A DNA stretch of 1,197 nucleotides from a phage. The notes beneath the pieces are model-generated. The model saw only the letters and a program-made list of their open reading frames with translations, searched no databases and was not told the DNA's origin. The position numbers were made by a program, and so were the translations under genes. Location: sequence record OR846209.1. One strand, written 5' to 3'. Within the stretch, counting starts at the first letter, position 1; each line of letters begins with the position of its first letter. Shown piece by piece: positions 1 to 1,197 of this stretch.

Positions 1-58
1 CGTCAATCCAGTCGATAACCTCAAAAGTCGAAGGATGGTAGTACACATATTTAGTCAT
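1..58 (-). CDS. 5' end of a downstream minus-strand ORF (3'-truncated by window edge); function unknown, by position a candidate tail-fibre assembly/chaperone or other accessory gene
   Basis: ATG at 58..56 lies 4 nt after the tail-fibre stop. Hand translation of the minus strand gives MTKYVYYHPSTFEVIDWID... open to the window edge. Only 19 codons are visible, and I do not recognise the N-terminus as a classical Tfa (lambda Tfa / Mu U / P2 G) start. The region is AT-rich. Confidence 0.35.
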   Translation of the reverse strand, partial: MTKYVYYHPSTFEVIDWID

Positions 59-62
59 ATTT

Positions 63-68
63 TCACCA
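63..68 (-). promoter_or_regulatory. Putative ribosome-binding site (TGGTGA on minus strand) for the downstream ORF, overlapping the last codon and stop of the tail-fibre gene
   Basis: Minus-strand sequence ...TTCATGGTGAAAATATGACT...: GGTG core at 67..64, about 5 nt spacer, ATG at 58..56. Weak Shine-Dalgarno match; arrangement fits translational coupling. Confidence 0.3.
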
Positions 69-1197
69 TGAAATTTTTACAAAACCATCAGAACCGCGCC
101 CACCAGAATATCCAGATATCGCGGAGCGCGTATTTTGGCTCAATGACGCACCACCACCACCACCAGCTCCATAGCCATCGGCATTTCCTCCGTTTGCAAA
201 TGCAGCCGCACTGCCGCCTGTGCCAAAGGCCGAACCCACACCAACCCCTCCTGGAGATGATTCGGTAGATGTAAATTCTGCTATTTTGCCGCTGCTACCT
301 AATCCGCCTTTAGCAGTGATATTAATAAAAGATGAGTCGCCTCCATCAAGCCCTAGTTCACCTGCATCCCCTTTAATTAGCGTATGGCCTTGTCCATTAG
401 GACCAATAGATGTTCTATCTTCATATGAACGTACAAAACCGCCGCCTCCACCTGAACCTCCAGCCCCAACAGAAACCGTATAAGTTTTTTTAGATGTCAC
501 ACCTATAATGGCAATTTTTAATTCTCCATGATTACCTCCCCTACCAGCTGAATAGGCATTAGTCTTATCGGGATCAGGAGTACATCCACCACCACCTCCT
601 CCACCACCTCCTCCCAGCATTTCAACAAAAACCTGCGTTACCCCATCAGGCACAGTAAAAGTCCCATTAGCTGTAAAAAACTGGTATCGAGGCCCGTTTG
701 AAGCTGCCGTATTTGCCAGATTCAGTGCCGCATTCGCCTTATCCATCGCCGCTTTCACCGCGCTCGGCGTCGCCGCCTCCGTCGTACTGGTGCTGTCGGT
801 GGCGTTATTAAGCTTCACGATCCCTTTTTGCGTTAGCGTACCGTCCGGGGTGCCGGTGATCTGCCCCCAGGCGTGAGTATGGCTGGCCGGGGCCGCCGCA
901 CTCGCCTTATCCATCGCCGCCTTTACCGCACTGGGCGTTGCCGCTTCTGTGGTACTGGTGCTGTCCGTCGCGCTGTTAAGTTTCACGATCCCTTTTTGCG
1001 TCAGCGTACCGTCCGGGGCGCCGGTGATCTGCCCCCAAGCGTGTGTATGCCTAGCCGGAGCCGCCGCACTCGCCTTATCCATCGCCGCCTTGACCGCACT
1101 GGGCGTTGCCGCTTCGGTGGTGCTGGTGCTATCGGTGGCGTTATTAAGCTTCACAATCCCTTTTTGCGCCAGCGTGCCGTCCGGGACACCGGTAACC
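63..1197 (-). CDS. Phage/prophage tail fibre protein, 3' portion (5'-truncated by window edge): repeated shaft motifs plus glycine-rich C-terminal distal domain
   Basis: Minus-strand ORF in the six-frame track (63..1154, 363 aa) ending at TGA (63..65). The 'M' at 1154 is a GTG that corresponds to Val in the internal repeat motif GIVKLN. Hand translation of 1155..1196 in the same frame gives ...VTGVPDGTLAQKGI with no stop, so the gene continues upstream past position 1197. The repeat motif GIVKLN(N/S)ATDSTSTTEAATPSAVKAAMDKA...HTHAWGQITG matches my memory of enterobacterial phage tail-fibre repeats (the Pfam Phage_fiber_2 type); not verified by search. Confidence 0.88.
   Translation of the reverse strand, partial: VTGVPDGTLAQKGIVKLNNATDSTSTTEAATPSAVKAAMDKASAAAPARHTHAWGQITGAPDGTLTQKGIVKLNSATDSTSTTEAATPSAVKAAMDKASAAAPASHTHAWGQITGTPDGTLTQKGIVKLNNATDSTSTTEAATPSAVKAAMDKANAALNLANTAASNGPRYQFFTANGTFTVPDGVTQVFVEMLGGGGGGGGGGCTPDPDKTNAYSAGRGGNHGELKIAIIGVTSKKTYTVSVGAGGSGGGGGFVRSYEDRTSIGPNGQGHTLIKGDAGELGLDGGDSSFINITAKGGLGSSGKIAEFTSTESSPGGVGVGSAFGTGGSAAAFANGGNADGYGAGGGGGASLSQNTRSAISGYSGGRGSDGFVKISW
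66..725 (-). other. Glycine-rich C-terminal distal domain of the tail fibre (putative receptor-binding tip)
   Basis: After the last repeat the protein becomes unique: ...RYQFFTANGTFTVPDGVTQVFVEML-GGGGGGGGGG-CTPDPDKT...VGAGGSGGGGGF...GLDGGDSS...KGGLGSSGK...PGGVGVGSAFGTGGSAA...GYGAGGGGGASL...GYSGGRGSDGFVKISW. Multiple poly-Gly blocks are separated by short non-Gly segments. Position at the C-terminus of a tail fibre is where receptor-binding domains normally sit. Function is inferred, not demonstrated. Confidence 0.6.
584..613 (-). repeat. (GGN)10 codon tract encoding a 10-residue poly-glycine run
   Basis: Plus strand reads tccaccaccacctcctccaccacctcctcc, i.e. ten consecutive Gly codons (GGA/GGT) on the coding strand, directly between the ...TQVFVEML segment and CTPDPDKT... 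Confidence 0.85.
726..1197 (-). repeat. In-frame tandem repeat array, unit 168 bp / 56 codons, about 2.8 copies in window (array open at right edge)
   Basis: The string cgccttatcc recurs at 735, 903 and 1071 (spacing exactly 168 bp). Hand alignment of unit 735..902 against 903..1070 shows about 20 mismatches in 168 (about 88% identity). Encoded peptide units are nearly identical (differences N/S, A/T, R/S). Similarity decays below about 726. Confidence 0.92.

Follow-up and report, generated by a model that had tools for sequence, protein, structure and literature searches.

Tandem 168-bp units in a predicted Salmonella enterica prophage tail-fiber gene: conserved shaft modules, diverged DNA copies and a hybrid unit

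The window considered here is the whole 1,197-nucleotide stretch of sequence record OR846209.1, one end of which is occupied by tandem units of 168 bp. A first-pass annotation, made from the letters alone, had described these as in-frame repeats conserved in protein but diverged at synonymous sites. It had gone on to propose that they are no recent duplication, that they are kept by purifying selection, and that their synonymous divergence may reduce recombination between units, stabilizing the length of a fiber shaft. The questions raised by the locus are what the units encode, how old they and their present arrangement are, and whether their divergence is an adaptation in its own right or simply what protein-level constraint leaves behind.

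The repeat array and the gene that carries it

Tandem Repeats Finder places the array at window positions 727–1193 (period 168, 2.8 copies, 88% matches, no indels, score 724), and an ungapped repeat finder returns three copies at spacings of 168 and 168 with identities of 88% and 86%, so that the reported 168-bp in-frame periodicity is borne out by both; head to tail, the 168-nt units are 85–88% identical in DNA. The first-pass annotation had left the strand unstated. The coding strand is minus: the sole long ORF over the region enters the window at 1196–1197 and ends with a stop codon at 63–65. Of the three units originally described, two (A and B; Table 1) stand as complete units, but the third (C) does so only in part, homology ending at about position 727 and the final 12 codons of its frame unit being a non-repeat linker, ALNLANTAASNG, without the HxH motif discussed below. 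Plus-strand ORFs were dropped as short shadows of a GC-rich coding region. As for an RNA reading, there was no Rfam match and no tRNA in the window; no promoter-like site was found in it either, and the one terminator-like match was at chance level.

Table 1. Features of the window, with positions counted from its first letter
Feature	Position	Strand	Basis
Predicted tail-fiber gene, 3' part (377 codons + stop)	63..1197	-	ORF/translation; Pfam Phage_fiber_2 x3 + Gly_rich_2; 5' end outside window
Unit A, 56 codons, VTGVPDG...ARHTHAWGQ	1029..1196	-	Matches third unit of 581-aa allele type
Unit B, 56 codons, hybrid	861..1028	-	Zero mismatches to two parents either side of breakpoint; variable-site table
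Unit C, full frame unit	693..860	-	Translation in minus-strand frame
Unit C, repeat-homologous part (~44 codons, ITGTPDG...MDKANAA), last in array	727..860	-	Tandem Repeats Finder boundary 727; identical to unit 4 of L001
Linker LNLANTAASNGPR, non-repeat, without HxH, from array to C-terminal domain	690..728	-	Unit alignment
HxH (His-Thr-His) in linker after unit A, putative metal site on trimer axis	1041..1049	-	Translation; conserved in relatives
HxH (His-Thr-His) in linker after unit B	873..881	-	Translation; conserved in relatives
Candidate crossover interval, 26-nt tract identical in both parents, ACGCTGACGCAAAAAGGGATCGTGAA on coding strand	982..1007	-	Parent alignment
Glycine-rich C-terminal domain, presumed receptor-binding tip	66..689	-	Pfam Gly_rich_2, AF2, Foldseek
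Predicted DUF4376 tail-fiber assembly/chaperone gene, start (MTKYVYYHPSTFEVIDWID...)	1..58	-	201-aa ORF in L001, PF14301, PHROG tail families

The 377-residue translation matches Pfam PF03406 (Phage_fiber_2) in three stretches, at 173.1 bits against a cut-off of 22 (E 7.4e-52), the best stretch covering residues 120–160 and profile positions 1–41 of 42. It also matches many PHROG tail and tail-fiber families, and the profile match and the tail-fiber setting together place it among PF03406 proteins. More than 1,600 proteins match at E <= 1e-10, nearly all of the named ones being “tail fiber protein [Salmonella enterica]”; NCBIfam holds no family for the full protein, and an exact look-up of the window's partial protein found no record of it. 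Among 50,697 phage records, tblastn with the window protein matched one alone, OR850896, a 6-kb record entitled “Salmonella phage S.Kent 1-2-1” and flagged unverified. Window positions 1–1007 are 100% identical to this record (locus L001 in our set), whose fiber gene encodes 589 aa: a PF12571 N-terminal domain, one degenerate 51-residue unit, three 56-residue units and a glycine-rich C-terminal domain. The PF12571 (Phage_tail_fib) domain is present in every full-length relative, L001 included; the N-terminus of the window's own gene lies outside the window. OR850896 is unannotated as well as short (6 kb in all, coverage 3, flagged UNVERIFIED_ORG), and its gene content, that of a chromosomal prophage end with flanking genes, suggests a possible origin in host DNA, not in a virion genome.

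The gene neighborhood is that of a contractile tail. The chaperone gene begins 4 nt past the fiber stop, its first 58 nt being window positions 58–1. In chromosomal copies baseplate genes V, W, J and I adjoin the fiber gene (W-J-I lies upstream of it in loci L009, L012, L013 and L018), giving the order V-W-J-I-fiber-chaperone, and the domains found in neighboring genes are Baseplate_J, Tail_P2_I, GPW_gp25, Phage_base_V, tape measure and DUF4376. The neighbors in an E. coli locus also include tape measure, X and D genes, with fiber and chaperone near the prophage end. A position after W-J-I and directly before a chaperone gene is that of the P2 gpH/Mu S-type fibers; judged by its sequence and gene order, this is a tail-fiber gene of a P2/Mu-type contractile-tail Salmonella enterica prophage, and we assume that its product functions as a fiber in the virion. 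The earlier reading of the repeats as a fiber shaft fits both the Phage_fiber_2 matches and this context.

Two other features of the neighborhood may be recorded. Between baseplate genes V and W of the Salmonella loci, on the same strand, is a gtrA - glycosyltransferase - GT_STM0557-type cluster (O-antigen glucosylation), at 909–3744 in L009 and also present in L012 and L013, upstream of 908; the corresponding E. coli prophage lacks it. The last 4 nt of the chaperone gene are shared with a conserved ORF of 151 aa (L001 1742–2197, minus strand; L009 8377–8832), which is without a Pfam domain on record and matches PHROG 1128 (moron/auxiliary gene).

The C-terminal part of the protein is of a different character. 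AF2 models residues 170–377, the C-terminal domain, confidently and as beta-rich, and the best Foldseek match to this domain is the cyanophage Pam3 fiber 7ypx (E 9.9e-8, TM-score 0.44 on the target). The match to Gly_rich_2 (PF21722) is marginal, at 25.4 bits against a cut-off of 24.3; HMM, by this slight margin, and fold both point to a glycine-rich/TNF-like tip (PF21722; Pam3 gp24-like). Foldseek also finds a resemblance to Bxb1 tail-tip proteins and to the glycine-rich domain of the human ALK/LTK receptors. GC3 is 0.72 in the repeats (726–1196) and in the N-terminal domain of L001, versus 0.26 in the C-terminal part (66–725), a drop that makes the tip look compositionally foreign to the rest of the gene. 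Within it, at window positions 585–614, is a poly-glycine tract of 10 residues, read on the plus strand as runs of CCA/CCT/CCC; its length varies, 10 vs 11 Gly, between otherwise near-identical proteins. Many “partial” proteins of the family end or begin exactly at this tract, which suggests that short-read assemblies break there; the many “partial” cluster members had raised the suspicion of assembly breaks inside the 168-bp repeat, but the sequences place the breaks at the poly-glycine.

Shaft modules and array length

Each 56-residue unit consists of a 42-residue Phage_fiber_2 core, with the consensus PDGTLTQKGIVKLNxATDSTSTTEAATPSAVKAAMDKA, and a 14-residue Ala/Pro linker of the form AAAPA-x-H-x-H-x-W-x-Q. 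Among 123 relatives the spacing from core to core is 56 residues in 251 cases, and 51 only after the first, degenerate unit; the HxH follows 457 of 494 units in the same set, both His being kept and x being T, I, S, K or R, so that the motif is a conserved one within the fibrous segment. In T4 gp37, R-type (R1/R2) pyocin fibers and P2 gpV, three HxH motifs together bind iron octahedrally on the axis of the trimer, a site thought to be a reference point for the three chains, and repeats let the length of a fiber be adjusted (PMC6116203). The AF2 monomer model, which gives the repeats one helix per unit at pLDDT ~30, is uninformative for this part of the protein.

By analogy, the fiber would be a homotrimer in which the modules stack along the trimer axis, forming a spacer between a baseplate-binding N-terminal domain and the glycine-rich, receptor-binding tip, and the HxH motifs of the three chains may come together as a putative six-histidine metal site holding the chains in register. 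If the modules are indeed a stacked axial spacer, their number would set the reach of the fiber. Taken as a whole, the best explanation of the 168-bp periodicity, and one in which we have high confidence, is that it represents three consecutive 56-residue shaft modules of a minus-strand Salmonella enterica prophage tail-fiber gene.

How many such modules does the gene hold? The comparison of copy number that had been recommended gave 2, 3, 4 and 5 units in 1, 15, 88 and 19 of the 123 relatives, respectively, each array consisting of one degenerate 51-residue unit and one to four full units. The number of copies varies, and as far as the relatives' sequences indicate the array is a short one of 2–5 units, not open-ended. 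The 538-aa and 484-aa genes carry in-register deletions, their first units being fusions of unit 1 with a later unit. That the array continues beyond the window, as the first-pass annotation had it, is not readable from the window itself; all of the relatives support it, but for only about two more units. From their pattern of one degenerate and one to four full units, we infer for the window's gene, whose 5' part lies upstream of the window, a probable total of five (one degenerate and four full) and a product of ~645 aa.

Selection on the units and their age

Pairwise counts agree with the figures given originally (~88% identity, ~20 differences, mostly in third positions). Units A and B (168 nt) differ at 21 sites, distributed 2/2/17 over the codon positions, and at 5/56 residues (dN 0.041, dS 0.544, dN/dS 0.074). 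Over the 132 homologous nt, A and C differ at 20 sites (3/2/15; 4/44 residues; dS 0.705, dN/dS 0.074), and B and C at 16 (1/2/13; 3/44 residues; dS 0.567, dN/dS 0.054). The third-position excess is significant by binomial test (P = 1e-5 to 2e-4), as is the contrast of synonymous with nonsynonymous changes by Fisher tests on the unit pairs (P = 1e-7 to 6e-7). The calculation of dN/dS between units that had been proposed gives 0.05–0.08, with differences mostly synonymous rather than mostly nonsynonymous, and the purifying selection suggested earlier proves to be strong. Conserved coding repeats usually show just this combination of low dN/dS and diverged synonymous sites: here the shaft modules are under strong purifying selection while their DNA copies have drifted apart at synonymous sites (dS 0.5–0.7), and neutral synonymous drift under protein constraint explains the pattern.

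The age of the units can be judged from the fiber genes of eight Salmonella loci, cut into units for comparison. Units at the same position in different genes differ at 3–9 of 132 nt (the second units, for example, at 3–9/132 sites), versus 13–23 for neighboring units within a gene. Units cluster by array position, so that the duplications predate the split of these Salmonella alleles, and the comparison shows each array position within Salmonella, in the alleles sampled, to keep its own DNA type. Genes of E. coli, Superficieibacter and Phytobacter share this architecture, and dN/dS is as low in them. Between genera the mean number of differences is 26.5, against 17 within genes, and non-Salmonella units are closer to each other than to any Salmonella unit; this grouping by lineage suggests that over longer times the array turns over slowly or is homogenized, rather than being frozen.

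Could the units nevertheless be recent duplicates to which hypermutation, say, or a mutational bias toward third positions has given a false appearance of age? This can be entertained as a general possibility, but a dS of 0.5–0.7 between units speaks against it, as does the architecture common to E. coli, Phytobacter and Superficieibacter, and the recurrence of particular unit types, each with its characteristic differences, at matching array positions of independent Salmonella alleles refutes it by positional orthology; we give it practically no credence. The earlier statement that the repeats are not a recent duplication accordingly stands for the units themselves, by their dS and positional clustering. 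It does not stand for the A–B tandem in its present form, which appears to have been put together recently.

A hybrid unit and the recombination of arrays

Unit B matches the terminal unit of the 581-aa allele (L012) without a mismatch over its first 21 nt, and unit 3 of the 589-aa allele (L001) without a mismatch from nt 48 onward. Unit A differs from unit 3 of L012 at 3/132 sites and from L010 by 1 mismatch in 193 nt, and its type is the third in the array in 25/25 representatives that carry it. The alignments thus suggest that the window's gene is a recombinant. The 581-aa allele would have supplied unit A and B as far as nt 21; what remains of B, together with unit C, the tip and the beginning of the chaperone gene, can be shown by alignment to be identical to the 589-aa allele. 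Unit B being a perfect hybrid of two alleles, the A–B tandem would have been assembled recently from old, diverged pieces, and part of the divergence between A and B would be divergence between alleles, not divergence accumulated in place after duplication.

An equivalent hybrid is found in the five-unit 641-aa gene of L013 (3001–4926), in which unit 4 perfectly combines the 5' part of the terminal unit with the 3' part of a unit-3 type. Units 4 and 5 of this gene share an 89-nt identical tract (P 0.005 vs random), which fits a recent origin of the hybrid. Comparison of these alleles shows arrays that have apparently gained and lost units by unequal homologous crossover, leaving hybrid units behind. 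Homology-driven exchange tolerating divergence is documented in temperate phages (PMC3945230), and a recombination hot spot has been described in a Salmonella P2-like fiber gene (PMC8986868).

For the window, the simplest reading would be that a recent unequal exchange gave rise to a five-unit gene of ~645 aa. More specifically, a very recent natural unequal crossover through the 26-nt tract may have taken the shaft from four modules to five and joined it to the tip of the other allele, a proposal to which we give an even chance. If it is right, the array would be a built-in recombination adapter that tunes fiber length and swaps tips, not a length-stabilized structure.

The same arrangement could have been produced in assembly, by joining reads of two fiber alleles inside the repeat. 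The switch is sharp, from 100% identity with L001 (1–1007) to ~99.5% with L010/L012 (1005–1197), and the junction is found nowhere else: it was sought in 120 representatives and the listed cluster members, none of which carries it, and a 92-mer specific to the junction had no match among viral or metagenome contigs. Assemblies of this fiber gene are, moreover, often broken. However, the frequent breaks sit at the poly-glycine tract and not in the 168-bp repeat; the parents share only 26 nt, which is shorter than the k-mers with which assemblers normally finish; and both alleles occupy the same prophage position with the same neighbors, so that they would rarely be present in one genome. The equivalent hybrid unit of the 641-aa allele, whose exact protein is on 24 contigs and indexed in 245 collection blocks, also speaks against an artifact. 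An artifact seems quite improbable, and a natural recombinant is the reading followed here.

There remains the proposal that the units' synonymous divergence owes its origin or its persistence to selection, since it suppresses recombination between them and stabilizes shaft length. The units are 12–15% diverged and their longest exact tracts in the window only 20–32 nt, close to the shortest length usually quoted as sufficient for RecA-dependent exchange; alleles also look stable, the same 581-aa protein being found in 3405 collection blocks and the 641-aa protein in 245. Against this, when the same synonymous differences are placed at random between units in a permutation test, the mean longest tracts are 24.7, 21.1 and 22.8 nt, compared with 32, 23 and 20 nt observed (P 0.45–0.89): the exact tracts are no shorter than random. 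Relatives hold identical tracts of 39–89 nt between adjacent units, copy number varies from 2 to 5, and hybrid units exist, the window's unit B among them. Phage Rad52-like recombinases act on 78% identical substrates ~100-fold better than RecA (PMC3945230). Finally, the pattern is also what neutral drift at synonymous sites, under constraint on the protein, would lead one to expect, with no selection acting on the DNA. Selected suppression of recombination is not supported by these results and is, in our judgment, unlikely, with neutral drift the preferred account, although divergence probably does lower the rate of slippage relative to identical repeats. A caution follows for similar cases: synonymous divergence between repeats should not be read as an anti-recombination adaptation.

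Place among known repeat and fiber systems

The repeats are of an ordinary and well-known kind; Phage_fiber_2, HxH motifs, chaperone-dependent fibers and mosaic fiber genes are all established. The region can be confidently labeled as prophage tail-fiber shaft repeats, and this has little import beyond annotation. The additions made here are modest: a strict 56-residue super-unit with one HxH each, position-specific unit types, and a hybrid unit in the window. Together they make a small, clean case of fiber evolution, in which each position keeps its DNA type and rare unequal crossovers, in tracts of ~26 nt or shorter, would insert or delete modules of 56 residues and bring shafts together with new tips. 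For engineers of fibers and tailocins, the boundaries between modules and the natural junctions may be useful as marks of where length or tips can be changed.

Among tandem coding repeats generally, the array does not behave like the hypervariable, contingency type: these have near-identical units and frequent copy-number change, whereas the units here are 85–88% identical and fiber alleles recur unchanged on hundreds to thousands of contigs. A closer parallel is with repeats of the polyubiquitin type, in which the protein is identical and synonymous sites have diverged. As in these, every unit is under strong purifying selection, synonymous sites have diverged between units, and unequal crossover turns the array over slowly; protein and function are unrelated, and the likeness is an analogy only.

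Among fibers, PF03406 repeats were first noted in lambda Stf and in E. coli prophage fibers such as StfR. On the structure of the Phage_fiber_2 unit the literature yielded one statement only, that the repeat (Pf2) occurs in side tail fibers and is little known in structure and function (PMC3368898). Compared with the lambda Stf type (PF08400), the repeats described here form a strict 56-residue super-unit with an HxH linker and are in a P2/Mu-type (PF12571) fiber. The sole solved protein with sequence similarity is the phage Mu tail fiber S (PDB 5yvq, 8ju3; E 1e-6). Mu S (chaperone U; PDB 5yvq, 8ju3, 9ki1) is encoded in a like setting, after baseplate genes and with its chaperone gene directly downstream, but has one Phage_fiber_2 repeat, at residues 106–151, rather than an array; its C-terminal tip is unrelated, and the chaperone here is a DUF4376 protein. 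With the HxH fibers and spikes (T4 gp37, R1/R2 pyocin, P2 gpV) the protein shares an HxH with a variable middle residue in the fibrous part. Here, in distinction, the motif occurs once per 56 residues and is missing after the window's last unit, and the metal site is putative. In evolutionary behavior there is a parallel with the mosaic tail-fiber genes of temperate phages, which likewise combine a conserved N-terminal part and repeats with an interchangeable foreign tip, by crossover in a short identical tract; the difference is that the exchange here would have been between different array positions, so that the number of units changes as well.
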